A DNA stretch of 64,000 nucleotides from an uncultured Actinomycetes bacterium (lineage in GTDB: Bacteria; Actinomycetota; UBA4738; HRBIN12): the NCBI GenBank assembly GCA_963727185.1, contig CAVSFP010000009.1, positions 221,702-285,701 of the forward strand. Reading direction: 5' to 3'. A program made the translations under genes and the position numbers. Shown here piece by piece: positions 14,081 through 48,547 of this stretch (its first letter is position 1; each line of letters starts with the position of its first letter). Below the pieces are notes generated by a model. That model did no database searches. It saw only the letters and a list, made by a program, of their open reading frames with translations, and had not been told where the DNA came from.

Positions 14081-14083
14081 GAC

Positions 14084-14362: not shown

Positions 14363-14396
14363 GTAGCACACGGTAGCACAAGTGGCTCGAACATCT

Positions 14397-15058: not shown

Positions 15059-15176
15059 ATTATCAGAGTTACTGTGTGGTCCGGCCATGCGAAGGACGGT
15101 AGGACCGCGTCGACGGCGGCACCGTGACCCACGTCACTGCTCCATGTCGGAGCGGGAACGGGTGGAACCCGAGCGC

Positions 15177-28558: not shown

Positions 28559-28585
28559 CCGCTCCCCATCAGCGCGACCCTACAA

Positions 28586-28614
28586 GACCAGTTCATGACC
28601 AGTCAAGGACCAGT
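28586..28614 (-). promoter_or_regulatory. three direct GACCAGT repeats with 11-bp phasing (candidate GntR/HutC operator, internal to the operon)
   Basis: The plus strand reads aaGACCAGTtcatGACCAGTcaagGACCAGTgag. The array lies 28-56 nt upstream of the bicupin start (28558) and spans the ATPase stop codon (28603-28605). Confidence 0.55.
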
Positions 28615-31397: not shown

Positions 31398-32410
31398 CGG
31401 GGGACCCGGCGGCGGGGACTGGCAAGGAGTGACACGATGTCCGCAGCGATGTTTATGAACACGTAGAAGGCGGCCAGCAGGATCACGATGAACTGGATCA
31501 CCGGGATGTCCTTGTCCGTAACGGCATTCACGAGACCCGCACCGATCCCCGGATACGCGAACACGTACTCGACGAGCACGATGCCGCCGGCCAGGTACAG
31601 GAAGGTCAAGCCGATCGCCTGGATCGTTGCCGGCAGCGCGTTCGGCAGCGCATGGCGGAGCAGCACCGCACGCTTCGGGAGTCCTTTGAGCCGCGCCATC
31701 TCGACATAGTCACTCTCGAGCGCCTCGATGCTCGCCGCCCGCATCATGCGGAAGATGTAAGGCACGACCACGACCACGAGCGTGAGCACCGGGAGGATGA
31801 GCATCCGCGGCTCGTCCCATGGCTTCTCACCCGGCGGGATCGGCGAGACCGCCGGGAAGATGTGGAACACGTTCGTCGCGAAGACGAACACGAGCGCGAT
31901 CGCGATCGCGAACTCCGGCAGTGACGTCACGGCGAGCGCCACCACCGACATGATGTGGTCCGACGCGCGGTCGCGACGCAGCGCGGCAGCCAGGCCGAGC
32001 AGCACCCCGACGATGGACCCGATCACCCCCGCGAGGACGACGAGGACCGCCGAGTTCACCACCCGCGGCCAGACCAACTCCCCGACCGGTTGCTGCTGGC
32101 CGACCAGACTCGTACCGAGGTCGCCCCGCAGCAGCCCGCTCAGCCAGTCCCAATACTGCTCGAGCGGAGGGCGATCCAGGCCGAGTCGATGCTCAAGCGC
32201 GGTCAGCGATTCCGGCGTGGCCGTCTGGCCGAGCACCGCGTACGCGGCGTTCCCCGGCAGCACCTGCGTCGCGGCGAAGACGATCATCGACACGAACAGG
32301 AGCGTGAGGAACCCGAGCAGCGTGCGCTGGATCAGCAGGTCCCGGATCGGATGAGGCGTCTTCGGCGCAGGCTGGACGACCTCGGGCGCGACGGGTTCGA
32401 GGGCACTCAC
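31394..32410 (-). CDS. Dpp/Opp-type ABC permease (DppB-like)
   Basis: GTG 32410 (aa 100 of ORF 31394..32707) overlaps the GntR stop (GTGA). It reads ..IRDLLIQRTLLGFLTLLFVSMIVFAATQVLPGNAA.., with an EAA loop DYVEMARLKGLPKRAVLLRHALPNA. Confidence 0.88.
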   Translation of the reverse strand: MSALEPVAPEVVQPAPKTPHPIRDLLIQRTLLGFLTLLFVSMIVFAATQVLPGNAAYAVLGQTATPESLTALEHRLGLDRPPLEQYWDWLSGLLRGDLGTSLVGQQQPVGELVWPRVVNSAVLVVLAGVIGSIVGVLLGLAAALRRDRASDHIMSVVALAVTSLPEFAIAIALVFVFATNVFHIFPAVSPIPPGEKPWDEPRMLILPVLTLVVVVVPYIFRMMRAASIEALESDYVEMARLKGLPKRAVLLRHALPNALPATIQAIGLTFLYLAGGIVLVEYVFAYPGIGAGLVNAVTDKDIPVIQFIVILLAAFYVFINIAADIVSLLASPRRRVPR

Positions 32411-33171
32411 CGCGACCCGGCCTCGGGTCCCGCGATCGACGTGACGGAGGCCCGGAACCGATATCGCTCGCCCGCGAACGCTCCTTCGGACACCTCGATC
32501 CGACGACCCTCCTCGTCCCATGTCGTCGCCTTGATCAGCAAGACGCTCGCGCCGATCGGGACATCGAGGAGCTTCGCCTGACGCTTGTCTGCGGTGCCGG
32601 CACGGACGTCGTAGTCGGCTCGAGCTGGCACGATCCCATCTGCGCGGAAGCCGCCGTAGATGGAGTCGCGCGCGTAGTCCTGCGAGACGAGGCTCGGCGC
32701 GAGCCATGCCGCCGCCACCGCACGCTGCCAGCCGACGGGGACGCCCCCGAGCAGCCGGACCCGTTCGAGCTCGAGCACCTGCGCACCGGGTGGGGCCTCG
32801 AGCTCGTCGCCCTCCGCGAGGGTCGCCTCCCGGGGGATACAGGCAAGGACGCGCGAGGTCGCCTCCAGCCCGCGCTCGGCGGCGAGGTCGGTGAACCCGA
32901 ACAAGGCGTTCGGCTCAACGAGCGGTGTGACGAACCATCCCCGGGTCCCGTCGGCGCGCACGTAGCCGTGCCGCTCGAGTTCCTCGAGGGCGCGGCGCAC
33001 TGTCGTTCGGCTGACGCCGAACCGGCGACAGATCTCGCGTTCGCCGGGCAACCGGTCACTGACCTGGAGCGCGCCGCGATCGATGTCGGCGCGCATCAGT
33101 CTGGCGAGTTGGAGGTAGCGAGGTTGCTCGACCGAGCCGATCGTCGCTGAGGGCAAGCGGGTCGAAGCCAT
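32407..33171 (-). CDS. GntR-family transcriptional regulator, HutC/UTRA subfamily
   Basis: The N-terminal wHTH reads LPGEREICRRFGVSRTTVRRALEELERHGYV. The C-terminal domain is UTRA-like. Confidence 0.9.
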   Translation of the reverse strand: MASTRLPSATIGSVEQPRYLQLARLMRADIDRGALQVSDRLPGEREICRRFGVSRTTVRRALEELERHGYVRADGTRGWFVTPLVEPNALFGFTDLAAERGLEATSRVLACIPREATLAEGDELEAPPGAQVLELERVRLLGGVPVGWQRAVAAAWLAPSLVSQDYARDSIYGGFRADGIVPARADYDVRAGTADKRQAKLLDVPIGASVLLIKATTWDEEGRRIEVSEGAFAGERYRFRASVTSIAGPEAGSR

Positions 33172-34136: not shown

Positions 34137-34400
34137 CTACGCCTCGACGAGGAACACGACAGTCTCGGGCAGCACGCCGTCGGACTCCATCTCTTCGCCG
34201 AACCCGGGGGTCTGCATCGCGGCCATGAGGGCATCCATGTCGGCAACGTCCATCAGCAGCCCCACGTGGGTCGGGTTCTGTGGGTTTACGAACGTCCGGA
34301 TGTTGGTGATGCCGATGGTGCCGAGGGCCTTGGCGCGATTCGGCGAGGCAAGCCAAAGGTCCTTGTCTTTAACCTCAAGGTGGCTAATCACGGTGGGCAT
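34137..34400 (-). CDS. hypothetical small protein (87 aa)
   Basis: Internal ATG (codon 12 of ORF 34137..34433) is preceded by AAGGAGG and gives MPTVISHLEVKDKDLWLASPNRAKALGTIGITNIRTFVNPQNPTHVGLLMDV... No family recognised. Confidence 0.5.
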   Translation of the reverse strand: MPTVISHLEVKDKDLWLASPNRAKALGTIGITNIRTFVNPQNPTHVGLLMDVADMDALMAAMQTPGFGEEMESDGVLPETVVFLVEA

Positions 34401-34519
34401 TGGTGCCTCCTTTGCTTGTGGGACGAGCCACAACGCCCGACCCGGTTGACAAACGTACGCTTATGAAGGCTTCACGAAGACGGGCCGGAGTGGAGGTCTC
34501 AAGGATCACCTTTGAGGAC

Positions 34520-34969
34520 CTAGGGAACGGCCGAACGAGCAGGGCGATCCCACTCCTTCAGGAGGCGCTCGCGCTGACGCAGGGCCCGGTCGTAGGCGAT
34601 GATGAGCGACCCCTTGAGCGGCGACAGCGCGACGACCGCCTCGTCGAGGAAGCCGGCGTGCACACCCGGGCGATCCCACCCCTTCAGGAGGCGATCGCGC
34701 TGACGCAGGGCCCGGCCGTACGCGATGACGAGCGACTCGCTGAGCGGCGACTGCGCGACGACCCCGTCGTCGAGGGATCCGTTGCTTTCCGCCACGCGGG
34801 TACCGCTGCCTTCCACGCTCGTCACGGATCGATCGCCTCGACCGGCCACGTTGAGTGCCACCGCGCTCAGGATCAGCGCCGCGGCCGCAAGAACGGACAC
34901 GGTTACGGTCCAGAACGTGAACAGCGCCGGTCGGCCGGAGAACCCCATGGTTCCCGCTTTCGTGCTCAT
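34520..34969 (-). CDS. membrane-anchored protein with 2 x 42-aa tandem repeat (copy 1 of a paralogous pair)
   Basis: MSTKAGTMGFSGRPALFTFWTVTVSVLAAAALILSAVAL forms an N-in signal anchor. It is followed by two 126-bp repeats encoding ..SPL(S/K)(E/G)SL(V/I)IAY(G/D)RALRQR(D/E)RLLK(G/E)WDRP.. GC3 is high, and GGGGAGGGA lies upstream of the ATG. Confidence 0.55.
   Translation of the reverse strand: MSTKAGTMGFSGRPALFTFWTVTVSVLAAAALILSAVALNVAGRGDRSVTSVEGSGTRVAESNGSLDDGVVAQSPLSESLVIAYGRALRQRDRLLKGWDRPGVHAGFLDEAVVALSPLKGSLIIAYDRALRQRERLLKEWDRPARSAVP
34542..34793. repeat. 126-bp tandem repeat x2 (in-frame, 42 codons) inside 34520..34969
   Basis: The units start at about 34,542 and 34,668 (GGGCGATCCCAC(T/C)CCTTCAGGAGGCG...). 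Similarity fades in the last ~15 nt. Confidence 0.85.
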
Positions 34970-34984
34970 GATCCCTCCCCTTCC

Positions 34985-35010
34985 CTCGGGTACCGATCTC
35001 TGATCCCGAG
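34985..35010. promoter_or_regulatory. conserved dyad CTCGGG-N14-CCCGAG directly upstream of the small-gene RBS (also at 42765-42790)
   Basis: It is identical in both module copies. Copy 2 additionally carries a ~12-bp near-tandem duplication of one arm (CTCGGGTACCtc/CTCGGGTACCga). It could be an operator or an RNA hairpin. Confidence 0.35.
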
Positions 35011-35082
35011 GCTAGAGAGAGCACCGACCCGAGGAATCCCCGAAACCCGTACCGATCGAGACGGTGACCGGTAGGTCTTGGC

Positions 35083-37882
35083 TCACGATCCCGGATGGCC
35101 GGATGGGAACGTCGAGGCCAGCTCCGTGCGGGAGCGGATGCCCAGCTTGCGGTAGATCCGCTTGAGATTGGCTTCCACGGTATGGACGCTGACGAACAGG
35201 GCGTCGGCCACCTCTCGGTTGGTGCTCCCGGCGGCGACCAGCTCCGCCACCCTGGCCTCGGTCGGGGTCAGGTCCACCGAGGAGGCGGCCCGTCCGCCGA
35301 TCCGGGCAAGCTCGGCACGCGTCCGTTCCGCCCACTCCGCGGCGCCGAGCCGCTCGAAGATCTCCAGAGCCTGCGTGAGCGTGTCCCGAGCCTCACGCTT
35401 CCTCTTGGCCCGGCGCTGCACCGCTCCCCTCACCAACAGCGTCCGACCCAGCTCGAACGGAAGGGGCAGGCGATCGTGTTGACGGACGGCCTCATCGGCT
35501 GCATCAGATGCACCTTGGAGGTCACCCCGGGCCGCGAACACGAGCGCCCGGCATCTGGCTCCCGTCGCCATCGCCCATGCCCGATCGAGGCTTCGGCCGG
35601 CCTCCTCGAAGGGGGCGAGGAGCGCCTCAGCCTCGTCGAGCCGCCCGAGGGCGACGAGCGCCTCGACCTCGTCCGGGACGACCCGGAAGTAGGCGGGCTC
35701 CCGAACGCCCATCGCTTGCTCGAGCTCGACGGCCCTGGACAGGAACGCATCGGCCTCGGCGGGTCGGCCCAGGGAAAGCTCGAGGAACCCCAGGACCGAC
35801 AGGTTCGGGATCAGGAGGAGGATCTCGCCGGCCGCCTCGGCGACCCGCAGCCCCTCGAGGGCTTCCAGCCTCGCCGGGTCGGCCCGCCCCAGATGGGCTT
35901 CCACCAGGCCCACCGCGAAGTGGCCCTCCGACCGACATGGGCCCCATGTGGTTCCGCTGGGCGGTCGCCCTGCTCTCCCGGGCGTGCTCGATGGCTGCAT
36001 CCCAGTTGCCCGCCCGACACTCCAGCTCGGCGAGGTGGTATCGGATCTGCGCTTGCGGGGTCTCAACGCCGTGCGCCGCGGCATCACCCAGGAGCTCGGT
36101 GAACGTCCGGCGGGCCTCGTCCAGGCGATCGGTGAACTTGAGGAGCTGCGCTACGACGAAGCTTGCACGCAGGACGTGGGATTTGAATTCGCCCTCCATG
36201 TGCCCTTCCAGGGCGATCCCGCGATCGAGCATCTCCTGATCGACCCCGCGTCCGAGGAGGAACTCGACGAATGGATACGCCTGGAACGCTTCGGCCATCA
36301 CCCGTGGTTCCTGCAGCTCCTCGGCCAGCTGCAGCGCGGCGCGAGCGTGCCGTTCCGATGCCGCGAGGTCGCCCCTGAACAGCCAGGCGTACCCGAGGTT
36401 CTGCTCGATCAGTGCCCGCAGCGCGAGATCGTCCCCCGCCTCGCCCCGAGCAGCCTCGAACACGGCCCAGGCCCCCCGCCACCCTTCGGTCTCGGCGAGG
36501 CCCATCCCCAGGTCCAGTAGCAGTCGGGCCCGAGCCGGCCCGGCCATCGAGAGGTCCACCGCTTGCTCCAGGACGCTCCGCGCCAGCGAGGGGTCCCCGC
36601 TCTCGAAGTGAGCCACGCCCGCCTGGTGGGTCCGACGCACCAGGTCCTCGCCTCGATCCCGCGGCGTGGCGCGGCGGGCCATCTCCCAGAGCTCGGCCGC
36701 GGATTGCGGCGCTCCCCGGGAGGAGGCCAGCAGGGCGGCCTCCTCGAGGGCGGCGGCGACGGCGACGTCCGGGCCCTCGACGGACAGAGCCAGGTGGCGG
36801 GCTCGTTCCTCCGGATCGAGGACGATCGTCGCGAGCCGCGCGTGCAGCTCGCGACGCCGGGCAGGCGGGATCTTCTGATAGACGGCGGAAGCAAGGAGAG
36901 GGTGCGTGAACCGGAGCCCGTCGCCGACGACCTCCACGACGTCGTTGTCGATGGCAGGACCCAGACGATCGTCAACCCCGCGCGAAGGAGCGATCGCCGC
37001 AGCGATCACATCGAACGTCGGAGCCGACAGGGCCGAGACGATCTCCAGGGCTTCGACGGTCCGCGCAGGGAGCCCCCCGAGGCGATCCTCGATGAGCTCT
37101 TGAAGGCGGTCAGGGATCGGGAGCCCTTCGCCGGCCGTCACGTCACCTCCGCGGCGAAGGAGCGCCAATCCGATCTCCCGTGCGAAGAAGGGATTGCCTC
37201 CCGACATCTGGTGGAGGCTGAGGAGCGTGGTTCGGGAGAACCCTTCCCCCACCTTGGCCCGAAGCACCCGTTCGAGGGCGTCCTGCGACAGCGGTCCGAC
37301 GTGGACGGCGTGCACGCGATCCTCGGCGAAGGCCGACACGACGCCCAGGGGGTCGTCATCGGCACGGGCGCCTCGAGCGGCCGTCATCAAACCGACCTGC
37401 TCGTCCTTCAGGCGCCGCACGACGAACTGGAGCACCCGGACCGAAGGGATGTCCATCCATTGGACGTCATCGACGGCCACCACCACGGGAGAGGTGGAGG
37501 CCACCGATCGGAGGCATCCAAGCACGGCCAGGGAAACGGCCCGCTGGTCGGCTCGGGCGCCCGATCTCGGGGAGCGCAAGAGGGCCACCTCGAGGGCCTG
37601 ACGCTGTGGCTCCGGCACGGTGGGAAGTGCCTCCTCGAGGATGGGCTCGAGGAGGTCACCGAGGGCAGCGTAGGACAGGCGTGTCTCGGCCTCGACCGGA
37701 CCGCATGAGAGCGTGCGGTAGCGCCGCAGCTGAGCACCCGCCAGCCCCTCCTTCCACACGGTGGTCTTGCCGATGCCGGGATCACCCGACAGGACCAAGG
37801 CGCTCGGCCCGGTCGGGATCGAGTCCAGGAACCGATGGAGGATCGCGAGCTCGGACTCGCGCCCGATGACGTCACCGGCCAA
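35083..37882 (-). pseudogene. LAL-type regulator (P-loop NTPase + TPR + C-terminal LuxR HTH), copy 1, split by a 1-nt insertion
   Basis: The N-terminal 751-aa ORF (35627..37882) has Walker A GDPGIGKTT and Walker B VVVAVDDVQWMD. The C-terminal 334-aa ORF (35083..36087) ends in the GerE HTH LTPTEARVAELVAAGSTNREVADALFVSVHTVEANLKRIYRKLG. The two frames join at about 35,921-35,940, where copy 1 has one nucleotide more than the intact paralogue. Confidence 0.8.
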
Positions 37883-37935
37883 GACGCTCTCCCCGCGCTC
37901 GGTGGATGCCAGGATTCTAAGGATGGCGGGTCCGA
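37883..37935 (-). promoter_or_regulatory. conserved upstream region of the LAL gene with -10-like TAGAAT (copy 2: TACAAT at about 45,691-45,696)
   Basis: The homologous segments are ..CCGCCATCCTTAGAATCCTGGCATCCACCG.. and ..CCGCCATCCTTACAATCCTGGCGTCCACCG.. Each lies about 31 nt upstream of a TTG start at the equivalent position, with GGGAGAG-type SD boxes between. Confidence 0.4.
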
Positions 37936-38061
37936 ACCTGCGCCTCGATCACTCCGAGCTCCCGTGCCGTCTGTCGCGGGTCCACCTCGAGGTCGCCGGT
38001 CGTGAGCGTCCCTGAGTTTCCCCAAGTTGCGTCCGGGGAGCGTTGATTGCACCATGCGCGC

Positions 38062-39408
38062 ATGGAGCGCCCCGGTGTCGCCTTCGCCCGCGCTCAGGAT
38101 GGGGCATACCTCGCGTACCAAGCCTTCGGCGATGGACCGATCGACCTCCTGTGGCAGGACGACTTCTTCGCGATCGTCGACGAGTGGTGGGACTCGCCGG
38201 TTGACCGCGCCATCTACGAGAACCTCGCTGGATCCGCGCGGGTGATACTGCACGACCGGCGCGGCACCGGTTGTTCGAGCCGTGACGGCGGGCCGGCGAA
38301 CCTCGAGACCCGGGTTTCGGACACGCTCGCCGTGATGGACGCCGCTGGCGTGCAGCAAGCGGTCGTCGGCGGTCTCTTGGAAGGGGGAGCGAGCATGGCA
38401 CTGTTGGCCGCCATGTACCCCGAACGGGTCCGAGCGTTGGTGTGGTCGCGGCCGGTACCGTGCGCCGCGGCGAGGCCTGATTTCCCATGGGGCGTCGACG
38501 CCTCGTATATCGAGCGTGAGGAGGAGATCACGAGCGACTGGGGCACGGAGGCATTCGCACGCGGCTTCATGGAGCTGAACGCAGAGGCCATGGAAGGCCC
38601 GTGGTCGGCAGAGAGCTATGTCGCCACCCTCGCTCGGATCACACGCCGGACGTGTACCCCCGACGTGGCGAAGCAGCTCAACACGATGTGGTACGAGACC
38701 GACGTCCGCGGGGTGTTGTCGTCCATCCAAGTGCCGACGCTCCTGCTCGTCGACCGGGAGGACTCCGACCACGACCTCCGCACGATCGGCGAGCACGTCG
38801 CTTCGTTGATCCCCGACGCCGTTATCGAGCCCTACATCCTTGTGGACGACACCGGCGCCGGCGTCCGCGCGATGGGGGAATCGATCCGCCGGTTCATCGG
38901 TGCCGAGCGACGGCCCGAAGCGCTGGACTCCGTCCTGGCGACCGTGCTGTTCACCGATATCGTCGACTCGACCAAGCGCAGCGCGGAGTTGGGCGACCGG
39001 GAGTGGGGCGCCGTGCGACGGCGGCACGATGACATCGTCCGCGCCGAGCTGGCGCGCTACCGTGGCCGCGAGGTGAAGACGATGGGCGACGGGTTCCTCG
39101 CAACCTTCGAGGGTCCCGCACGCGGTGTGCATTGCGCCCGAGCGATCGCGGAAGGCGTCAGAGCGTTAGGGATCGAGATCCGCGCCGGCCTCCACACCGG
39201 CGAGATCGAACTGGAGGGCGACGACATCGCGGGGATCGCGATCGCGATCGGCGCCCGCATCGGCGCCATGGCAGGTGCATCCGAAGTGCTCGTGTCTCGC
39301 ACCGTGAAAGACCTCACGGCCGGAAGTGGACTCACCTTCGAAGACGTCGGAGAACACGACTTGAAGGGCGTCCCCGACCGCTGGCAGCTCTATCGGGTTG
39401 CGGGCTAG
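38062..39408 (+). CDS. alpha/beta-hydrolase domain fused to class III adenylate/guanylate cyclase domain
   Basis: The N-terminal ~270 aa are alpha/beta-hydrolase-like (VILHDRRGTGCS; GGLLEGGASMALLAAMYPERV). The C-terminal cyclase homology domain reads LATVLFTDIVDSTKRSAELGD...KTMGDGFLATFEGP...RAGLHTGEIE. The start is taken at ATG 38062 (ORF-track TTG 38047). Confidence 0.85.
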   Translation: MERPGVAFARAQDGAYLAYQAFGDGPIDLLWQDDFFAIVDEWWDSPVDRAIYENLAGSARVILHDRRGTGCSSRDGGPANLETRVSDTLAVMDAAGVQQAVVGGLLEGGASMALLAAMYPERVRALVWSRPVPCAAARPDFPWGVDASYIEREEEITSDWGTEAFARGFMELNAEAMEGPWSAESYVATLARITRRTCTPDVAKQLNTMWYETDVRGVLSSIQVPTLLLVDREDSDHDLRTIGEHVASLIPDAVIEPYILVDDTGAGVRAMGESIRRFIGAERRPEALDSVLATVLFTDIVDSTKRSAELGDREWGAVRRRHDDIVRAELARYRGREVKTMGDGFLATFEGPARGVHCARAIAEGVRALGIEIRAGLHTGEIELEGDDIAGIAIAIGARIGAMAGASEVLVSRTVKDLTAGSGLTFEDVGEHDLKGVPDRWQLYRVAG

Positions 39409-39879
39409 CCCGATCCCGAATCAACGGAGGCCCTTGAACTGGGAATCCGGACCATCTGTCACGGATCGCCGCGTTCTCGCCCGCGGTCTGTTCTTCAGAC
39501 GGTGGCAATCGGTGGTGTCCGGGTTCGCGTCCGGAGAGCAGCCGAAGCTATAACCCCTTAGTGCTTGACGGCAGAGTTGCGGCTCGTCAGTTGGCGTTCC
39601 TTGAGTCCCCCTTGGCCGCGGTGAGTCAAGCGGGGGAAGCAGCGAAAGCACTGGGCCCCAGCGCATCGGATGAAGGCGCTTCCGACCGACTCGAACCCGC
39701 CAGCAATAGTGCTTCGAAGCACGGTCGGCGGTAACCGCGTGTCCACCCGCATATGGAGAAAGGGTTGCTTCAGTAACAAGACAAAGGTAGCGAGGCCGGT
39801 CACGGCTACGCCCGCGTGGTGTCCGTCTCCTCCCTCGGCTTGGATCCCCGGATCGGGCAGTGTTGCGGGTGCAAGGGCT

Positions 39880-40022
39880 TCAGGGCGATGATCGAGGCGG
39901 GGGAGTTCAAGCCGATCGTCGATCGGCGATATCGTCTGGAACGAGATCATCGAGGCCTACCGCTACGTCGAGACGGGGCGGAAGATCGGCAACGTGGTGA
40001 TCACGGTCGATCCGGCGAGCTA
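39880..40022 (+). pseudogene. C-terminal fragment of a medium-chain (zinc-type) quinone oxidoreductase/alcohol dehydrogenase, frameshifted
   Basis: ..MIEAGEFKPIVDRRYRLE, then after a frame change ..IIEAYRYVETGRKIGNVVITVDPAS-stop. This is the typical C-terminus of the MDR family. The upstream ~450 bp have no intact frame, though a faint AIVLRSTVGG resembles the D-V-V-L-D-T-V-G-G region. Confidence 0.5.
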
Positions 40023-40038
40023 GTCGAAGGAGGGACAC

Positions 40039-40425
40039 ATGGGCGAGGCAGACGCAGTCGTTGGCATCTCGCGTGACGAACTGCGCGCGGGGCTCCCGAC
40101 ACCGGGCATGCGGCGCGAAGAAGCGATCGCCACCGAGACGACCTGGGCGGGGCTCGCTCATACCGAGGCCGGCATGGTGTCGGGCTGGCATCACCACGGC
40201 GACTACGAGTCTGTCATCTACGTCCTCACGGGAGGGTTCCGGATGGAGTCCGGTCCGGCCGGAACCATCGTCTTCGACGCAGCGCCCGGCGACTTCCTGT
40301 TCGTCCCGCGTGGTGCGATCCATCGAGAGGGCAACCCGTCAGACGACGAAGGAACCGCGGTCGTCGTGCGCACGGGACGGGGTGATCCCGTCGTGAACGT
40401 GGACGGCCCGGCGCCGAGCGTCTAA
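40039..40425 (+). CDS. cupin_2 domain protein (128 aa)
   Basis: GAAGGAGGG lies upstream of the ATG. The cupin motifs are GWHHHGDYESVIYVLTGGFRME and GDFLFVPRGAIHREGN. Confidence 0.7.
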   Translation: MGEADAVVGISRDELRAGLPTPGMRREEAIATETTWAGLAHTEAGMVSGWHHHGDYESVIYVLTGGFRMESGPAGTIVFDAAPGDFLFVPRGAIHREGNPSDDEGTAVVVRTGRGDPVVNVDGPAPSV

Positions 40426-40813
40426 CGAAGCAGGGCGCGATCGAGCTCGCTCGCCATCACGGGTCGAGGGCGATGATCCAGCGCTTCGAGTTGCAGACAT
40501 CGACGTCGGCCTGGCCCCGACGCCCCTTGAACGTCCGGTCCCGCCTCCGAGAGCGAGCCGCCCCTTGAACGACGAAGTGAAGGCCGCAGCAAGGAGTCGC
40601 CTTGGGATGGGTCGCATCCCAGTGAGGCTCCGTAGTTGCCGGCCGTATGGAAGTCGCCGAGATGCAGGACTGGGCAAGACTCGCAGTTTCGTGAACCAAC
40701 GAGTCACAGGCGAGTCGACCGTGCATCGACAGGAGCGCCGGCCATGGGGGAGCGGATAGCGGAACCCGCGACGCCTGCGGCCTGGCGCTCTGGCACGTCT
40801 ACGTGGTGCGTTG

Positions 40814-40835
40814 TCGGCGGATCGAGAGGGCGCCG
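40814..40835 (+). repeat. 22-bp exact direct repeat, left copy (TCGGCGGATCGAGAGGGCGCCG)
   Basis: It is identical to 41977-41998. GGTGC is also shared a few nt upstream of both copies. Confidence 0.9.
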
Positions 40836-41076
40836 AGATTCGTGACTGGAGACGAGCGCATACGAGGTCAGGATCGCCCTCCGAGCTGGGCGGTTATGCG
40901 TCGAACGAACGCCACACGACGATCGCGATTGCATCCGCGACCCGAAGCGATCCGCCCACATGCTCATGCGTCGGGGGTAGAGGGGTTGGTAGGTGACAAA
41001 CGGGTTTGGACTGCACTCAAGGTTGACGAGAGTGAACTGCTACCCCAAAGACGGCTCGGGTGAAGCTTGAGGACGG

Positions 41077-41766
41077 TTAGCTCTTGGCCTCAAGCGCGGC
41101 AACAGCCTCCGTGTCGAAGCCTTTGACGATCAACCAGATGCCGAGGCCGAACTCGAAGACCGCGACCGGGAGCGCAGAGAGCCCCGCGAACCCGCCGGTT
41201 CGGTCGATCGTTCCGGAGAGCACAAGCAGGTAGCCAACGACGAGCAGGGGTGCTCCGATGATGCCGATCACCGATAGCCCTCGCGGCACCAGGCGCGACT
41301 TGTACAGCATGTAGCCGAGCAATAGGTCGCAGACGGCGGGCATGAAGCTTTGCCCTAGCAGGAAGATGCGGTTGTAGAGGGCAACGAGCGCGTGGCTCAC
41401 CGCGAGGCCTCCTGTTCCAGCGCCGTCCAGCCGCAGGGTCACGATCGACAGGATGAACGCTACCCCGACGAAGATCGTGGCGGACTCCAGGATGCGGGCC
41501 GCGACAAGACCGAGTGCGAACGTCTCGTTCTGCTTCTTGAGTATCGGGAACAGGATGACGGCGGTGGCGATGCCGGCGAGAGCCACGATGATCTCCAGGA
41601 TGCCGCCGACGATGGCAGCCGTATTCGAACCCGAGCCAAGGAGGTAGTTCGCGCCCTTAACTGAGCTGTACAGAGCGATCGAAGGTATCGAAACGAAGGT
41701 GAGCACATACGCGATGCCTGCGGCGAGGGAGATCCTTCTCTGTGAAGACGCTGCGGTGGTATTCAT
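41077..41766 (-). CDS. DUF4386-like membrane protein (paralogue of 17028..17810)
   Basis: ATG 41766 gives MNTTAASSQRRISLAAGIAYVLTFVSIPSIALYSSV.... It has the same TM pattern as the other DUF4386-like gene. Confidence 0.7.
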   Translation of the reverse strand: MNTTAASSQRRISLAAGIAYVLTFVSIPSIALYSSVKGANYLLGSGSNTAAIVGGILEIIVALAGIATAVILFPILKKQNETFALGLVAARILESATIFVGVAFILSIVTLRLDGAGTGGLAVSHALVALYNRIFLLGQSFMPAVCDLLLGYMLYKSRLVPRGLSVIGIIGAPLLVVGYLLVLSGTIDRTGGFAGLSALPVAVFEFGLGIWLIVKGFDTEAVAALEAKS

Positions 41767-41976
41767 ACGTCTACTGTCCCCCCTTGATCGTTGACTACTG
41801 CGCCCGCGCCGCCTACTTGGCGCCGTGTGTCTCATCCTGCCAGATGCTCTCCCACCAGTGGTGCCACTGCCATCTTCGCAAGCCGACTGGCCAGATATCG
41901 CCTTGTCGGCAGTCCCCAGCTGGCTTGAGTCCCATTCCCCGGTCTGGGAGGCAGAGTGTACGCATTAGGTGCTATC

Positions 41977-41998
41977 TCGGCGGATCGAGAGGGCGCCG
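41977..41998 (+). repeat. 22-bp exact direct repeat, right copy
   Basis: It is identical to 40814-40835. The two copies bracket 1.14 kb containing only the DUF4386-like gene. Confidence 0.9.
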
Positions 41999-42314
41999 GA
42001 CGGCTTATTCGAGGGGGAGGAAGCCGTCTTGCACCTGATGTGTTAGGAGATAGAACGCCCCGGGACGCCCCCCATCGAATCGCGATCTCGGAGAGGGCCT
42101 ATCCGAGGGAGAACCCGTCCTCCAACGCTTGATGAGAAGAGAGATAGAGAGCTAAGGATGCCCCAGCCCCTAACGCACATCGTGTGAGGATCTATTCGAG
42201 CCGCGCCCTCCTTACCTCCCCGAGCTATCACCGAGTCGGGTGCTCGCTCGCCGACTCGCCGAGCTCGCCCCCCTAAGCGTGGTCGGGCGGCGATCGTTGC
42301 GCTGGCTGCGGGTC

Positions 42315-42737
42315 CTATCGTCCAGCCGAGGACCGCGGGAAGATGATTCCTTGGTCGCACCCGACACAGGAGGGCAGGGAACGTGACCGAGCAAGCGCCC
42401 CAGCAAACCTCGGGAAGATGGTTCCTTGGTCGCACCCGACACAGGAGGGCAGGGAACGTGACCGAAGAAGCGCCCTAGGAACACCCGAGAAGATGGTTCC
42501 TTGATCGCATCCGACACAGGAGGGCAGGGCGCCCGCGTTCGCCGAAGCGCCGACCCGCTCGGCCCGCTCACCATCCCTTGCCACACTCGTAACGGAGCGA
42601 TCGCCGCGTACCGCCACGGTGAGCGCCAGGGCGCTCATGATCAGCGCCGCGGCCGCAAGAACGGACACCGTTACGGTCCAGAACGTGAACAGCGCCGGTC
42701 GGCCGGAGAACCTCATGGTTCCCGCTTTCGTGCTCAT
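42315..42737 (-). CDS. membrane-anchored protein with 3 x 25-aa CxxC-containing tandem repeat (copy 2 of the paralogous pair); coding status of the repeat part uncertain
   Basis: The N-terminal ~50 aa are almost identical to 34520..34969 (MSTKAGTMRFSGRPALFTFWTVTVSVLAAAALIMSALAL). The C-terminus is three repeats of SLPSCVGCDQGTIFP(R/S).....(S)R. The repeat part uses many low-GC3 codons (tgt, caa, gga, ctt, tca), unlike neighbouring genes. Confidence 0.45.
   Translation of the reverse strand: MSTKAGTMRFSGRPALFTFWTVTVSVLAAAALIMSALALTVAVRGDRSVTSVARDGERAERVGASANAGALPSCVGCDQGTIFSGVPRALLRSRSLPSCVGCDQGTIFPRFAGALARSRSLPSCVGCDQGIIFPRSSAGR
42337..42530. repeat. 75-bp tandem repeat x about 2.6
   Basis: The units start at about 42,337, 42,412 and 42,487. 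The first ~52 nt of each unit are nearly identical (GGGAAGATG(A/G)TTCCTTGGTCGCACCCGACACAGGAGGGCAGGGAACGTGACCGA). The last ~23 nt are more diverged. Confidence 0.85.
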
Positions 42738-42861
42738 GAATCCCTCCCTTCCCTCGGGTACCTCCTCGGGTACCGATCTCTGATCCCGAGGCTAGAGGGA
42801 GCATCGTTCCGGGGAATCCCCGAAACCCGTACCGATCGAGACGGAGACCGGTACGTCTTGC

Positions 42862-45765
42862 TCAGGATCCCGGGTGGCCGGATGGGAACTTCGAGGCCAG
42901 CTCCGTGCGGGAGCGGATGCCCAGCTTGCGGTAGATCCGCTTGAGATTGGCTTCCACGGTATGGACGCTGACGAACAGGGCGTCGGCCACCTCTCGGTTG
43001 GTGCTCCCGGCGGCGACCAGCTCCGCGACCCTGGCCTCGGTCGGGGTCAGGTCCACCGAGGAGGCGGCCCGTCCGCCGATCCGGGCAAGCTCGGCACGCG
43101 TCCGTTCCGCCCACTCCGCGGCGCCGAGCCGCTCGAAGATCTCCAGAGCCTGCGTGAGCGTGTCCCGAGCCTCACGCTTCCTCTTGGCCCGGCGCTGCAC
43201 CGCTCCCCTCACCAACAGCGTCCGACCCAGCTCGAACGGAAGGGGCAGGCGATCGTGTTGACGGACGGCATCATCGGCTGCATCAGATGCACCTTGGAGG
43301 TCACCCCGGGCCGCCAACACGAGCGCCCGGCATCTGGCTCCCGTCGCCATAGCCCATGCCCGATCGAGGCTTCGGCCGGCCTCCTCGAAGGGGGCGAGGA
43401 GCGACTCGGCCTCGTCGAGCCGCCCGAGGGCGACGAGCGCCTCGACCTCGTCCGGGACGACCCGGAAGTAGGCGGGCTCCCGAACGCCCATCGCTTGCTC
43501 GAGCTCGACGGCCCTGGACAGATACGCATCGGCCTCGGCGGGTCGACCCAGGGAAAGCTCGAGGAACCCCAGGACCGCCAGGTTCGGGATCAAGGGGAGC
43601 ATCTCGTCGGCCGCTTCGGCGAGGCGCAGCCCTTCAAGGGCTTCCAGCCTCGCCGGGTCGGCCCGCCCCAGATGGGCTTCCACCAGGCCCACCGCGAAGT
43701 GAGCCATCGACGAGAAGGACCCCATGGCTTGCCGCTGGGCGGCCGCCTTGCTTTCGCGGGCGTGTTCCATGGCTGCATCCCAATTCCCCGCCCGGCATTC
43801 CAGCTCCGCGAGGTGATACAGGATCTGAGGGACCGGGCTCTCGACACCATGCGCCGAGGCACCAGCCAGGAGCTCGTTGAACGTCCGGCGGGCCTCGTCC
43901 AGGCGGTCGGTGAACTTGAGGAGTTGAGCGAGGACGAAGCTCGCGCGCAGGACGTATGAGATTAACTCCCCCGACATATGCCCCTCCAGGGCTATGCCAC
44001 GATCCAGCAGCTCGTGATCGACTCCCCGCCCCAGGAGGAACTCGACGAATGGATACGCCTGGCAGGCTTCGGCCATCACCCGTGGGTCCTGCAGCTCCTC
44101 GGCCAGCTCCAGCGCCGCGCGAGCGTGCCGTTCCGATGCCGCGAGGTCTCCTATGAACAACCGGGCGTACCCGAGATTTTGCTCGACACGTGCTTTCAAA
44201 GCGAGATCGTCTCCCACCTCGTTCGAGGCAGCCGAGAAGATGTCCACGGCCCGCCGCCAGCCTTCCTCCGCCGCAACGACCTGGCCCAGATCGAGTAGCA
44301 CCCTTGCCCGAGGCGGCCCGTGGGTCGAAAGGTTCACCGCTTGCTCGAGGACGCTCCGCGCCAGCGAGGTGTCTCCGCACTCGTAGTGAGCCACGCCCGC
44401 CTGGTGGGTCCGACGCACCAGGTCCTCGCCTCGATCCCGCGGCGTAGCGCGGCGGGCCATCTCCCAGAGCTCGGCCGCGGATTGCGGCGCTCCCCGGGAG
44501 GAGGCCAGCAGGGCGGCCTCCTCGAGGGCGGCGGCGACGGCGACGTCCGGGCCCTCGACGGACAGAGCCAGGTGGCGGGCTCGTTCCTCCGGATCGAGGA
44601 CGATCGTCGCGAGCCGCGCGTGCAGCTCGCGACGCCGGGCAGGCGGGATCTTCTGATAGACGGCTGAAGCAAGGAGAGGGTGCGTGAACCGGAGCCCGTC
44701 GCCGACGACCTCCACGACGTCGTTGTCGATGGCAGGACCCAGACGATCGTCAACCCCGCGCGAAGGAGCGATCGCCGCAGCGATCGCATCGAACGTCGGA
44801 GCCGACAGGGCCGAGACGATCTCCAGGGCTTCGATGGTCCGCGCAGGGAGCCCCCCGAGGCGATCCTCGATGAGCTCTTGGAGGCGGTCAGGGATCGGGA
44901 GCTCTTCGCCGGCCGTCACGTCACCTCCGCGGCGAAGGAGCGCCAATCCGATCTCTCGTGCGAAGAAGGGATTGCCTCCCGACATCTGGTGGAGGCTGAG
45001 GAGCGTGGTTCGGGAGAACCCTTCCCCCACCTTGGCCCGAAGCACCCGTTCGAGGGCGTCCTGCGACAGCGGTCCGACGTGGACGGCGTGCACTCGATCC
45101 TCGGCGAACGCCGACACGACGCCCAGGGGGTCGTCATCGGCACTGGCGCCTCGAGCGGCCGTCATCAAACCGACCTGCTCGTCCTTCAGGCGCCGCACGA
45201 CGAACTGGAGCACCCGGACCGAAGGGATGTCCATCCATTGGACGTCATCGACGGCCACCACCACGGGAGAGGTGGAGGCCACCGATCGGAGGCATCCGAG
45301 CACGGCCAGGGAAACGGCCCGCTGGTCGGCTCGGGCGCCCGATCTCGGGGAGCGCAAGAGGGCCACCTCGAGGGCCTGACGCTGTGGCTCGGGCACGGCG
45401 GGAAGTGCCTCCTCGAGGACGGGCTCGAGGAGGTCACCGAGGGCAGCGTAGGACAGGCGTGTCTCGGCCTCGACCGGGCGGCATGAGAGCGTGCGGTAGC
45501 GCTGTTGCAGGGCACCCGCCAGCCCCTCCTGCCATACGGTCGTCTTCCCGATGCCGGGATCACCGGATAGGAGCAGGGCGCTCGGGCCGGTCGGGATCGA
45601 GTCCAGGAAGCGATCGAGGATCGCGAGCTCGGACTCGCGCCCGATGACGTTATCTGCCAAAGGCGCTCTCCCGCGTCGGTGGACGCCAGGATTGTAAGGA
45701 TGGCGGGGCCAACCTTGCAGACCCGTCGAGGCTCGCACGGTCGGCGGTACCCGCCATCGCGCCAA
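42862..45765 (-). CDS. LAL-type regulator (P-loop NTPase + TPR + LuxR HTH), copy 2, intact
   Basis: 967-aa ORF with the same Walker A/B motifs and C-terminal GerE HTH as copy 1. The likely true start is TTG 45660 (..LADNVIGRESELAIL), homologous to the copy-1 start and downstream of the conserved TACAAT box. Confidence 0.85.
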   Translation of the reverse strand: MARWRVPPTVRASTGLQGWPRHPYNPGVHRRGRAPLADNVIGRESELAILDRFLDSIPTGPSALLLSGDPGIGKTTVWQEGLAGALQQRYRTLSCRPVEAETRLSYAALGDLLEPVLEEALPAVPEPQRQALEVALLRSPRSGARADQRAVSLAVLGCLRSVASTSPVVVAVDDVQWMDIPSVRVLQFVVRRLKDEQVGLMTAARGASADDDPLGVVSAFAEDRVHAVHVGPLSQDALERVLRAKVGEGFSRTTLLSLHQMSGGNPFFAREIGLALLRRGGDVTAGEELPIPDRLQELIEDRLGGLPARTIEALEIVSALSAPTFDAIAAAIAPSRGVDDRLGPAIDNDVVEVVGDGLRFTHPLLASAVYQKIPPARRRELHARLATIVLDPEERARHLALSVEGPDVAVAAALEEAALLASSRGAPQSAAELWEMARRATPRDRGEDLVRRTHQAGVAHYECGDTSLARSVLEQAVNLSTHGPPRARVLLDLGQVVAAEEGWRRAVDIFSAASNEVGDDLALKARVEQNLGYARLFIGDLAASERHARAALELAEELQDPRVMAEACQAYPFVEFLLGRGVDHELLDRGIALEGHMSGELISYVLRASFVLAQLLKFTDRLDEARRTFNELLAGASAHGVESPVPQILYHLAELECRAGNWDAAMEHARESKAAAQRQAMGSFSSMAHFAVGLVEAHLGRADPARLEALEGLRLAEAADEMLPLIPNLAVLGFLELSLGRPAEADAYLSRAVELEQAMGVREPAYFRVVPDEVEALVALGRLDEAESLLAPFEEAGRSLDRAWAMATGARCRALVLAARGDLQGASDAADDAVRQHDRLPLPFELGRTLLVRGAVQRRAKRKREARDTLTQALEIFERLGAAEWAERTRAELARIGGRAASSVDLTPTEARVAELVAAGSTNREVADALFVSVHTVEANLKRIYRKLGIRSRTELASKFPSGHPGS

Positions 45766-45837
45766 GCCTCGAAGTCACCTTCGGAGATCGTGCGGCGAGT
45801 TGAGGGAGTCCTCTCGAAAGGATCGTCGAACCCCATT

Positions 45838-45892
45838 GGACACGGACTCCGATTCCTGAACCACATGGGACACGGACTCCGATTCCTGAACC
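45838..45892. repeat. 25-nt motif GGACACGGACTCCGATTCCTGAACC repeated twice with 30-bp period in the divergent LAL/cyclase intergenic region
   Basis: Read directly from the sequence, with copies at about 45,838-45,862 and 45,868-45,892. It is absent from the equivalent copy-1 intergenic region. Confidence 0.85.
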
Positions 45893-46035
45893 GCCAATGG
45901 CCTATCCCCAAAAGCGCTTCGTGCGACGTACAACCGCCGTGATCTAGAGTTCGGTGAGGCAGTGCCTACACGTCCAGCCGAGGGTAAGGGTTGTACGCGT
46001 GGTCGGCGCGGTAGGTGAGAGCTGGAGGGTGCTTC

Positions 46036-47292
46036 ATGATCGCGGACACCTCGATCGGCCCAGATGAGCTCGCCTCTCGCGCCAACGTCACCCGCGAGCG
46101 GGTCGACGAGCTGGCGAAGCTCGGCCTGATCGAGGCGCATGGCGATCGATTCGTGGCGGCGGACGTTGGCCGGATCGCCGTCGTCGAAGCCCTCGTCGGT
46201 TCCGGCGTTCCGCTGGCGGATCTCGTCGAGACCGCTGCCGCCGGCGTGGTGTCGCTCGCGTGGTTCGAAGGCGTGCTACCCCCGTCCCCCCCACTCGGTG
46301 CCAGAACGTATCGAGAGGTGCTCGAAGAGCTCGACCTGCCAGCCGCTCTCGTCTGCACCCTGTTCGAAATCTGGGGTGTCACCCAGCCGCCGCTCGATGA
46401 CCGCATCCGGGCGGACGACGAGCGACTGTTCCGCTTCCTTGCGCCTTCCTATGAAACGCTCGGCCGCGCCGATGAGAAGTTCCTCGAAGCAACGCGGCAC
46501 TTCGGCGACAACGCGCGTCGAAGCGCCGAGGCCCAGATCGACTTCTATCGTCGCAGGATCTTGGAACCGCTCCTCGCGTCGGGTCTCTCCTTGAAAGAGA
46601 TCGTGGAGAGGATCAATCCGATCACGAGCAAGGTGATGCGACCGGGCGTTCACGAACTCCTCCTTTGGCTTAACCGGCGTCACGTCGACGCCCTGAACAT
46701 GCAGATGCTCGTCCAGCTCGTCGAGACGGCTTTGCTCGACGCGGGCGTCGAGATTGCCCGCGAGCAACGACACCCCGCGATCGCGTTCCTCGATCTGTCG
46801 GGCTTCACTCGGTTAACCGAGGAGGCCGGCGACGAACAGGCCGTCTCGCTCGCCACGAACCTATCCGATGTCGTTAGGACTGCGGCCCTGAAGTTCGGCG
46901 GCATCGCCGTCAAGTTGTTGGGGGATGGAGTGATGTTCCACTTCCCTGATCCGGCGGACGCGGTGCGCTGTGCCTTGTACCTGCTGCCCGAAGCGGCCAG
47001 GCGCCAGCTTCCGCCGGCGCGGGTTGGCGTACACGCGGGACCGGTCGTGTTCCGAGACGGTGACTACTTCGGGCGGACGGTGAATCTGGCCTCCAGGATC
47101 ACGGATTACGCGCGACCGGGTGAGGTTGTCGTGTCCCAGTCGGTGGTTCAGTCGGTGGGCGAGGTGGAGGGCGTAGCATTCCAACCGATCGGGCCCGTGG
47201 CGCTCAAAGGTATCTTGGAACCCATCGTCCTCCACGTGGCACGGGGCCCTATCGGAGCAGGGCCGGTGCCGGGCTCATCTTCTGCCGCGTAG
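46036..47292 (+). CDS. class III adenylate/guanylate cyclase with N-terminal HTH-like (MerR-type?) and helical domains
   Basis: GGAGGG lies 7 nt upstream of ATG 46036. The N-terminus MIADTSIGPDELASRANVTRERVDELAKLGLI is HTH-like. The C-terminal cyclase domain reads AIAFLDLSGFTRLTEEAGDE...KLLGDGVMFHFPDP...RVGVHAGPVVFRDGDYFGRTVNLASRI. Confidence 0.8.
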   Translation: MIADTSIGPDELASRANVTRERVDELAKLGLIEAHGDRFVAADVGRIAVVEALVGSGVPLADLVETAAAGVVSLAWFEGVLPPSPPLGARTYREVLEELDLPAALVCTLFEIWGVTQPPLDDRIRADDERLFRFLAPSYETLGRADEKFLEATRHFGDNARRSAEAQIDFYRRRILEPLLASGLSLKEIVERINPITSKVMRPGVHELLLWLNRRHVDALNMQMLVQLVETALLDAGVEIAREQRHPAIAFLDLSGFTRLTEEAGDEQAVSLATNLSDVVRTAALKFGGIAVKLLGDGVMFHFPDPADAVRCALYLLPEAARRQLPPARVGVHAGPVVFRDGDYFGRTVNLASRITDYARPGEVVVSQSVVQSVGEVEGVAFQPIGPVALKGILEPIVLHVARGPIGAGPVPGSSSAA

Positions 47293-47782: not shown

Positions 47783-48547
47783 ATGCCTGTTCCTGATCCC
47801 TCATTCGGTTGGCAGGACGCCACCGCTGCCTTCGCCATCATCGCGGTCGTGGCGTTCTTGGTGACCTGGGTTGTGACCGACCTCGGTCACGTGTCGCGGA
47901 CACCCTACGTGGCGATCCTCACGCTGATGACGCTCGCCCTTGCGGCTGGTTACCTCGTTTGGTCAGGTACGTCGGTGGCCGACCTCGTAACGACGGGGTG
48001 GGTCTGGGGCATCCTCGGAGGTCTGGTTGCAGCCGGGGTGGTTACGCCTCTCGTGCGTCGTTTGCCCTCAGGACGACCTCGACCTGAAGGTTCTCAGCTC
48101 GTTGGACGGCTCCTCTGGGAAGGGGTCGTGTACGGATTCGCGGAAGCAGTCCTGCTCGCCACCCTGCCGGTCCTAGCTGTTTGGCAGGCGACCGAGGCAC
48201 TCGGATGGACGGACACCACTTGGGCGAAGGTGGGCTCGGGCGCACTCGCAGTGGTCGGAGCGCTGTTCGTGGTCTTGGTCCACCACCTCGGATACCGGGA
48301 GTTCCGGGCGAGGGCCCATAGGAAGATGCTCTCGGGTGCGCTGGTGGGCTGCGGCATCCAGGCGTTGGCGTTCCTTCTGACGGGCAATGTGCTCGCCCCG
48401 ATCGTCGCCCACATCGTGCTGCACGGGCAGTTGACGCTCCGTGGCATCGAGATGCCTCCCACGTCGCACCCGGAGCCGGTTTCCAGTGGCGCAGACCGCG
48501 CGCGCGTCACCAAGGTCCCCGCACCGGAGAAGGAGCTAGTCGCGTAA
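47783..48547 (+). CDS. integral membrane protein, possibly a distant CPBP (CAAX-protease-like) family member
   Basis: 254 aa with about 6 TM helices. Weak CPBP-like motifs are present (WEGVVYGFAEAV; VLVHHLGY; APIVAHIVLH). A GGAGAGGAG RBS lies upstream. Confidence 0.45.
   Translation: MPVPDPSFGWQDATAAFAIIAVVAFLVTWVVTDLGHVSRTPYVAILTLMTLALAAGYLVWSGTSVADLVTTGWVWGILGGLVAAGVVTPLVRRLPSGRPRPEGSQLVGRLLWEGVVYGFAEAVLLATLPVLAVWQATEALGWTDTTWAKVGSGALAVVGALFVVLVHHLGYREFRARAHRKMLSGALVGCGIQALAFLLTGNVLAPIVAHIVLHGQLTLRGIEMPPTSHPEPVSSGADRARVTKVPAPEKELVA

Follow-up and report, generated by a model that had tools for sequence, protein, structure and literature searches.

A LuxR-type regulator and a small membrane-anchored repeat protein as a candidate two-gene module in uncultured soil Actinomycetota

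The stretch of DNA analysed here, referred to below as the window, comprises 64,000 nucleotides (nt) of contig CAVSFP010000009.1 (assembly GCA_963727185.1, positions 221,702 to 285,701) from an uncultured Actinomycetes bacterium and has a GC content of about 67%. It carries, twice, a gene for a large transcriptional regulator followed on the same strand by a small gene for a membrane-anchored repeat protein, with a class III nucleotidyl cyclase gene diverging from the regulator. An original prediction made from the letters alone had described this twofold layout as a trio of cooperating genes. The layout is indeed present, as a duplication with a cyclase gene lying outside each copy, and the domains named for regulators and cyclases proved correct in a Pfam hidden Markov model search. 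The features at issue, including open reading frames (ORFs) and lengths in amino acids (aa), are as follows.

34809-37939: duplicated segment copy 1, which runs from a 57-nt stub of the regulator promoter through the regulator and the small-gene promoter into the small gene, taking in its first ~53 codons
42576-45715: duplicated segment copy 2 (blastn and global alignment)
35083-37882, minus strand: regulator copy 1 (AAA_16, tetratricopeptide repeats [TPR], GerE; Pfam), frame-interrupted, seen as two overlapping ORFs in different frames
42862-45660, minus strand: regulator copy 2 (Pfam), intact, about 932 aa; the ORF reaches 45765
34970-35082, minus strand: control region copy 1, with palindrome (35049-35074), 27-nt element (35033-35059), TAGCCT, dyad (34984-35011) and Shine-Dalgarno sequence GAAGGGGAGG
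42738-42861, minus strand: control region copy 2, with palindrome (42829-42854), 27-nt element (42813-42839), dyad and a 12-nt duplication (42752-42774)
34520-34969, minus strand: small gene 1, 149 aa, encoding a conserved N-tail, a membrane helix and a type C repeat cassette
42315-42737, minus strand: small gene 2, 140 aa, encoding the common leader and a type B cassette (SLPSCVGCDQGTIFP..., three times)
38062-39408, plus strand: cyclase 1 (cyc1), Abhydrolase_1 plus Guanylate_cyc (Pfam), LipJ-like, divergent from regulator 1
46036-47292, plus strand: cyclase 2 (cyc2), an N-terminal region without family assignment plus Guanylate_cyc (Pfam), divergent from regulator 2

The two segments are direct repeats with 92.8% identity over 3152 aligned columns. 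The edge of the duplication falls within the small ORF, and past the ~53 common codons each small gene runs on into tandem repeats unrelated to those of the other. Along the two segments identity forms a mosaic: it is about 99% over 35094-35800 and 36588-37688, the blocks that hold the C-terminal and nucleoside triphosphatase (NTPase) parts of the regulator, and 75-86% over 35894-36588. This pattern suggests older paralogues whose flanks have been homogenised by gene conversion, and not a simple recent duplication.

Both regulators have an AAA_16 domain (PF13191; E = 3e-18 in copy 1, 4e-19 in copy 2), TPR_12 repeats (E = 2e-19) and a C-terminal GerE domain (PF00196; E = 8.5e-14 and 2e-14). The C-terminal half of copy 1 also gives a weak TPR_MalT match, and the helix-turn-helix (HTH) part a weak NCBIfam match to MalT and IniR. 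Pfam detected no Guanylate_cyc domain in either copy and no cyclic nucleotide-binding domain in the regulator. Two gene boundaries differ from those first drawn. Copy 1 is not one ORF spanning 35083-37882; a single extra G at about 35932-35933 splits it into ORFs 35627-37882 and 35083-36087. This G is private to the window, being absent from copy 2 and from nine relatives, some of them near-identical (96-97% in DNA over the unit), and it reflects either an error in sequencing or a very recent inactivation, which would have made copy 1 a pseudogene. Copy 2 most likely starts at about 45660 rather than 45765, because homology and the 931-aa gene calls in relatives both point there.

Relatives are referred to below by locus numbers (L) and, for proteins, by P numbers. 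After correction of the frameshift, regulator copy 1 is 96-97% identical to the L024 regulator and is its ordinary orthologue. Its counterpart in L045 is intact, and the whole L045 unit is 96.5% identical in DNA. The outlier is the middle of copy 2: its TPR segment (aa 432-663) is about 80% identical to that of most relatives and 90% identical to that of L002. We considered whether this divergent middle marks a hypervariable sensor throughout the family and rejected the idea, as conservation across the family is flat along the length. ARAGORN calls a 92-nt tRNA-Ser(cga) at 35802-35893 (minus strand), inside the coding sequence of regulator copy 1; since the matching stretch of copy 2 gets no call, the tRNA is probably spurious. 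Elsewhere in the window a stand-alone 73-aa protein made up solely of a GerE/LuxR-type HTH (22585-22806, minus strand) clusters with the C-termini of the regulators.

Is the small gene a chance neighbour of the regulator or a partner? A genome scan gave 41 loci whose regulators are 75-90% identical, all in metagenome-assembled genomes (MAGs) of uncultured soil Actinomycetota, and exact-protein look-ups added four, making 45 related genome loci. In 41 of the 42 informative loci the two genes are same-strand neighbours. The regulator comes first in 30 of these 42, with the small gene starting 114-197 nt after it, and in 11 the order is reversed, the small gene standing immediately ahead of the regulator; one further locus is indeterminate and the others are truncated. 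Metagenome stretches give the same picture, the regulator adjoining the small gene in 61 of 66 that are informative. That the adjacency survives a changed gene order is strong evidence of functional linkage. Clustering of all flanking ORFs found no other family conserved around the pair in more than about 11 loci, and in every relative examined at the boundary homology with the window reaches no farther than 37939, which is 57 nt ahead of the regulator start. Taken together, this boundary and the lack of a shared flanking family delimit a unit of two parts, the regulator preceded by its promoter stub and the small gene preceded by its control region, in surroundings that are not syntenic. Two copies of it are present in several genomes. 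Judged by these comparisons, the conserved system is a two-gene duo and not a trio, and the partnership between regulator and small repeat protein is real, widespread and undescribed in the literature searched. A variable membrane-anchored repeat protein as a dedicated, undescribed partner of the regulator was part of the original prediction, and that part is strongly borne out by the genome and metagenome counts.

The strongest conservation of the small gene lies ahead of it: in an alignment of 35 loci the preceding ~100 nt are conserved above the proteins. Two elements stand out. The palindrome GTACCGnT-N10-AnCGGTAC occurs twice in the window (0.09 expected), each time at a small-gene promoter, and across loci 42 of 54 matches sit 40-140 nt upstream of a small gene. 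The second element is a 27-mer, TCGATCGGTACGGnTTTCGGGGATTCC, which within the window is confined to the two small-gene control regions and which is exact in 29 of 48 loci as well as in both window copies. Scanning metagenome contigs with the 27-mer returned 89 stretches; 83 had enough flank, and in 81 of these a small ORF of matching architecture begins 61-62 nt past the element. Neither palindrome nor 27-mer is present in the regulator-cyclase intergenic regions of the window.

The control region also contains a -10-like hexamer, TAGCCT, which fits the actinobacterial TANNNT pattern, and a GC-rich dyad that had been placed at 34985-35010 and is found one nucleotide wider on each side. The dyad folds well in the window copies (z about -2.4 to -2.5). 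RNAalifold paired only a pyrimidine tract with the Shine-Dalgarno sequence in the 5' region and did not recover the dyad. As good folding is limited to the window copies, we claim no conserved RNA structure. A terminator scan gave nothing useful, and Rfam matched nothing in the window as a whole and gave no meaningful hit in the stretch around the small gene. In copy 2 the 12-nt direct duplication (CCTCGGGTACCT) adds a second 3' arm to the dyad. Farther upstream, between regulator 2 and cyclase 2, there is a 30-nt tandem repeat (45828-45892; 2.2 copies, 94% matches).

The small ORFs themselves begin 113 nt beyond the regulator stop in copy 1 and 124 nt beyond it in copy 2, the first close to and the second somewhat beyond the ~110 nt originally given for both. 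Their leader defines a family of 598 protein clusters (E <= 0.01), none with a Pfam domain and all from metagenomes or MAGs. The source names seen are all 'hypothetical protein' except that of P0048, 'diphthamide synthase', an evident mis-annotation. The seven N-terminal residues are conserved (M-S/G-T-K-A-G/E-T; N-tail MSTKAGTMGFSGRP). Variable columns in the leader number 25, 18 and 38 at the first, second and third codon positions; that third positions vary most shows the leader to be coding. An AlphaFold model of a type A protein (mean pLDDT [predicted local distance difference test] 54.8) has a confident helix at residues 13-44, low confidence elsewhere and a short helix per repeat. Because K and R precede the predicted helix, the model supports a single-pass, N-in membrane anchor, the topology first proposed, with an unstructured extracytoplasmic region. 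A type A family profile found no match in the PDB, and Pfam and NCBIfam found none in the small proteins apart from a recF fragment, discussed below.

Beyond the leader come the repeats, for which the window has the following two features.

42332-42556, minus strand: type B cassette, a 75-nt unit repeated 2.6-3 times (Tandem Repeats Finder and repeat search)
34542-34781, minus strand: type C cassette, 1.9 copies of a 126-nt unit that derives from within recF (Tandem Repeats Finder and repeat search)

At least five unrelated types of cassette (A-E) can be told apart, and in every one the repeat unit is a multiple of 3 nt. Type A is the usual one, with 1-5 copies of the core LWDAGKLEAMxGRVLAE separated by a variable spacer of ~9 aa and ending in ...GRVLAG. 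Its motif W-D-x-x-K-L-x-A-M-x-G-R is kept even with divergent leaders (L001, L019). Type B, in six clusters with P0121-P0126 as full-length homologues of small gene 2, has 1-4 copies of the invariant core LPSCVGCDQ. In both A and B the cores are conserved above the spacers. Type D consists of VTGTGPGL repeats. Type E (L054, L088, L122, L136) has 3-4 repeats of ERGRAADAARWAGQADAWL and an unrelated membrane helix; the MGTKAET start is kept, only the first seven codons are common to the other types, and the gene begins ~61 nt after the 27-nt element. Types A, B and C might have been frame-shifted or reverse-complement versions of one another, an idea we rejected as their similarity in DNA is not above that of shuffles.

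Type C has a traceable origin. Its unit matches positions 131-172 of the recF model TIGR00611 and is 60-70% identical to RecF fragments of related organisms; one matched protein, P0190, was confirmed as RecF against solved structures. Small gene 1 holds this internal segment of ~42 aa twice, in frame, and does not carry the full RecF ATPase (Walker A/B plus signature). The type C cassette is, on this evidence, a captured recF fragment and not a RecF protein. It is also found in P0153, which aligns over its full length and is 83% identical over the repeat region of small gene 1, in P0139 (L045-L047), a whole-protein homologue of small gene 1, and in P0148 and P0150. Matches of ~35% identity to TPR/CHAT and YadA-stalk proteins were set aside as reflecting repeat composition. 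When window copy 1 is compared with typical type A loci, homology stops at ~34774-34789 and resumes at 34542-34496, which indicates that the cassette was replaced between conserved flanks. By this comparison, and by the variety of types, the cassette is swappable for unrelated sequence.

Are the small ORFs then functional as proteins? They might not be, the conserved part being a non-coding regulatory element or a 3' element of the regulator and the repeats unstable DNA. Such a reading could draw on the flat codon-position GC of the type B cassette in window copy 2, on synonymous:nonsynonymous ratios near neutral for types B and C, on cassettes that are mutually unrelated and in one case a captured gene fragment, on a 27-mer conserved above the protein downstream of it, and on frameshifts, which several relatives have inside the repeats. 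In all, frameshifts affect small genes in L012, L023, L027, L029, L032, L033, L038 and L040 and regulators in L031, L033, L036, L038, L040, L041 and L048; they are likely indel errors, since most of these are long-read MAGs, and may in part be real decay. Set against this, an open frame with a Shine-Dalgarno sequence stands at a fixed distance from the 27-mer in nearly all metagenome cases, third codon positions are the most variable in the leader, the repeat units keep the frame, the type A motif outlasts divergence of its leaders, the type B core does not vary, and the non-homologous type E retains N-tail, membrane helix and repeat architecture. Small gene 1 shows a strong third-codon-position GC signal along its whole length. 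We regard the non-coding explanation as very improbable.

What of the cyclases? As had been foreseen, both lie outside the duplication, and their catalytic domains are only 30% identical over 145 aa. The alpha/beta hydrolase domain proposed for the N-terminus of cyc1 was confirmed by Pfam, which gave no family for the supposedly HTH-like N-terminus of cyc2. cyc1 aligns over its full length with NCBIfam NF058673 (309 bits, below the equivalog cut-off of 800), and an exact-protein look-up returned no identical record. Its Guanylate_cyc match has E = 3e-7, and its predicted activity is doubtful because the position of the transition-state Asn reads Ala (GIAIAIGARI vs GRTVNLASRI). cyc2 (PF00211, E = 9e-12) has the canonical motifs FLDLSGFT, GDG and VNLASR.

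The original prediction had the three genes cooperating. In its strict form the cyclase would be a fixed third member of the system: cyclase, STAND-LuxR regulator (STAND, signal transduction ATPase with numerous domains) and small membrane protein would form an obligatory set, a split version of the fused Mclx proteins of Mycobacterium (PMC4452763), with the cyclase or its product controlling the regulator. Several observations favour such a trio. In both window copies a cyclase diverges from the regulator, and the two junctions are independent. With an iterative profile search, genes with a cyclase domain turned up within 10 kb at 15 of the 45 related loci, concentrated near the module: about 15 lie within 5 kb and 3 at 5-10 kb (344 vs 254 kb surveyed; p about 0.01-0.02, a test that overstates independence, the loci being related). 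LipJ-like genes akin to cyc1 are found again in L004, L010, L012, L021 and L028, and in L045 a 65-aa ORF directly upstream of the regulator on the same strand (6581-6778, plus; VDVSQTVDDLVAGTGLTFVDAGEHELK...) is a remnant of the C-terminal end (38 aa) of a cyc1-like cyclase. In L034 a 1164-aa fusion of Zn-ribbon, Guanylate_cyc, AAA_16 and TPR (13370-16861, minus) lies directly after the small gene in convergent orientation, and in L015 a Zn-ribbon-cyclase gene begins 4 nt past the regulator stop.

The survey of relatives nevertheless conserves regulator and small gene, and the cyclase only as a loose enrichment. None of ~40 relatives has a divergent, adjacent cyclase, and two thirds of the loci have no cyclase within 10 kb. 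The units of L045 and L046, the closest to copy 1 and near-identical to it, lack an intact one. Where cyclases do occur they vary in position, strand and architecture (LipJ-like, HAMP-cyclase, Zn-ribbon-cyclase, and the Zn-ribbon-cyclase-AAA_16-TPR fusion). The conserved operator element is missing from the cyclase promoters, and the regulator has no detected domain that would bind a cyclic nucleotide. An obligatory trio accordingly seems improbable to us. As far as these loci go, cyclases are recurrent but facultative neighbours of the module and not core parts of it. A functional link between cyclase and regulator is plausible, because the Mclx fusions exist; the Rosetta-stone argument built on them stands as a lead and falls short of demonstrated coupling.

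Other neighbours of the module are as follows. One feature downstream of small gene 1 is co-conserved, in the closest relatives only.

34137-34433, minus strand: 98-aa ORF downstream of small gene 1, 100% identical in aa sequence in L045 and L046 and 71% in L048; no Pfam or NCBIfam match

A DUF4386 membrane protein gene occurs near the module both in the window (41077-41835, minus) and in L046 (15280-16029), and an unannotated 254-aa membrane protein (window 47783-48547) recurs beside it in L045 and L046 in differing orientations. A tRNA-Ala(tgc) lies directly beside the module in L002 (16624-16698) and L019 (13364-13437); the second regulator of L002 is followed by the palindrome and then the tRNA, without a small gene. 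At a distance of 2-8 kb from small gene 1, the window has an Opp/Dpp-type ATP-binding cassette (ABC) transporter (26058-33171, minus; permease 31394-32707, fused double ATPase with oligo_HPY 28603-31119) next to a GntR/UTRA regulator (32407-33171). This transporter is not conserved with the module in relatives. An anti-phage defence role for the STAND protein was considered and rejected: PADLOC gave only generic HTH and cyclase-domain matches of 27-30 bits and no match to a defence-system protein.

The reading we prefer, with a probability of roughly 0.6, is that regulator and small gene form a self-contained two-gene module in which the STAND regulator controls the small gene and cyclases are facultative. 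The regulator is a cytoplasmic protein of the LAL/MalT type (LAL, large ATP-binding regulator of the LuxR family), with a P-loop NTPase, a TPR sensor and a C-terminal LuxR/GerE HTH. As a dimer or oligomer it would sit on the palindrome and the adjoining 27-nt element, together a candidate operator, and from there control transcription of the small gene. LuxR/NarL-type HTH domains recognise palindromes as dimers, and it is for this reason that we assign the palindrome to the regulator. The small protein would most likely in turn feed back on the regulator, either through released peptides or as a membrane tether acting through its cytoplasmic tail; this last step is speculative.

Several points weigh against this reading. 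Both the binding site and the direction of control are inferences. A scan for E. coli-type promoters detected none, and support for the 5' untranslated hairpin is uneven among relatives (z-scores -0.1 to -1.2). Constraint on the small protein is weak: small gene 1 and its L045 counterpart differ by 3 synonymous and 8 nonsynonymous codons, against 68:38 for the regulator of the same genome pair, and within type A the synonymous:nonsynonymous counts are 285:378 for the leader and 279:490 for the repeats. That one cassette is made from a recF fragment casts doubt on the importance of the cassette sequence as such. Co-variation of receptor and ligand, in a simple test, is weak: the regulator of L028, where the small gene has a type B cassette like that of window copy 2, has a typical TPR segment and not the divergent one of regulator 2, and distances in TPR1 and in the cores give a Mantel correlation of only 0.44 (p about 0.009; the sequences compared are related). 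Finally, a cyclase adjoins each of the window copies, and chance is an unlikely cause of this even given the local density of cyclase genes.

One possible form of the feedback deserves separate weighing. In a loop like that of the RRNPP (Rap, Rgg, NprR, PlcR, PrgX) systems, the small protein would be an exported pro-peptide whose cores (candidates are LWDAGKLEAMQGRVLA and LPSCVGCDQGTIFP) are released by a protease, re-imported and bound by the TPR domain of the regulator, which then controls the pro-peptide gene. Strict adjacency of a cytoplasmic TPR regulator to a gene for a small exported protein is in keeping with this, as are the conserved cores, variable spacers and variable copy number of types A and B, which recall multi-copy peptide precursors. 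The module is self-contained, often present several times per genome and found in non-syntenic contexts; tandemly duplicated pheromones are known in Rap-Phr systems (PMC11343458); and the Opp/Dpp-type transporter is near copy 1. The hydrophobic segment, however, is ~28-32 residues long and anchor-like, and this length speaks against a simple signal peptide that is cleaved off. Regulators that differ by 10-25% are paired with almost the same type A core, so that no strain-specific pheromone pattern is seen, and in the one clear test (L028) cassette type does not track the TPR segment. As a STAND NTPase of 930 aa whose LuxR HTH is C-terminal, the receptor would differ from those of RRNPP systems; the transporter sits by a GntR/UTRA regulator and is not kept beside the module in relatives; and one cassette is a recF fragment. 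A loop of this kind is therefore unlikely in our estimation, though less so than the obligatory trio. We give similarly low odds to the broader proposal that the module serves peptide-based cell-cell or self-signalling, with the STAND-LuxR protein as receptor either for peptides released from the precursor or for an N-tail freed by intramembrane proteolysis, and with cyclases as optional inputs.

Returning to the two-gene module, its interest lies in a regulator clade defined by its sole conserved partner, a small unannotated membrane or secreted repeat protein whose family of about 600 clusters is seen only in soil metagenomes and MAGs. The near-invariant 27-nt cis element, the palindromic candidate operator and the fixed spacing to the start codon offer handles for experiment. 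Cassette swaps, among them the in-frame recF fragment, show how unrelated DNA can be put together into new ectodomains or pro-peptides. The cyclase 'trio' is corrected to a loose association.

How does the module compare with known systems? LAL/MalT-type regulators are abundant in Actinomycetota, and their signals are mostly unknown. The regulator described here is like them in having an AAA_16 P-loop NTPase, a TPR/MalT-like superhelix and a C-terminal GerE domain in ~930 aa. Known LALs respond to small molecules, and what they control are regulons for sugars or biosynthetic gene clusters, whereas here the sole conserved partner is one gene for a small membrane-anchored repeat protein, a pairing of which we found no description in the literature searched. 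The Mycobacterium Mclx proteins Rv0386, Rv1358 and Rv2488c are cyclase-AAA/NB-ARC-LuxR fusions (PMC4452763). They resemble the window genes in that ATPase and LuxR HTH modules, again in Actinomycetota, go together with a class III cyclase domain, and also in that frameshift pseudogenisation is frequent among them, regulator copy 1 being likewise frameshifted. In Mclx the cyclase is fused; in the window it is separate, divergent, of two unrelated architectures and not conserved beside the regulator. The nearest Mycobacterium homologue (L042, 38% identity) has neither cyclase nor small gene nearby. As for the cyclases, cyc1 is like the LipJ/Rv1900c-type lipase-cyclases in its full-length alignment with NF058673 and unlike them in its score and its replaced Asn, and cyc2 has what is expected of a class III cyclase (catalytic domain, metal-binding Asp, transition-state Asn/Arg).

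The RRNPP cassettes of Bacillota likewise combine a TPR regulator with an adjacent small gene that encodes an N-terminal export segment and repeated C-terminal units (PMC10075063, PMC11343458), and they too are multi-copy and found in variable genomic contexts. Tandemly duplicated Phr pro-peptides are part of that repertoire. Their receptors are built from TPRs only or with an N-terminal HTH and have no NTPase; the regulator here has 932 aa, an AAA_16 domain and a C-terminal GerE domain. The module differs further in its anchor-like leader, in a commonest core that is highly conserved and not strain-specific, in its phylum, and in being known from sequence alone. Should the repeats nevertheless prove to be released signals, peptide signalling would extend to a major soil phylum with a new type of receptor, and the module would be the first case of RRNPP-like logic outside Bacillota, built on a different receptor class.

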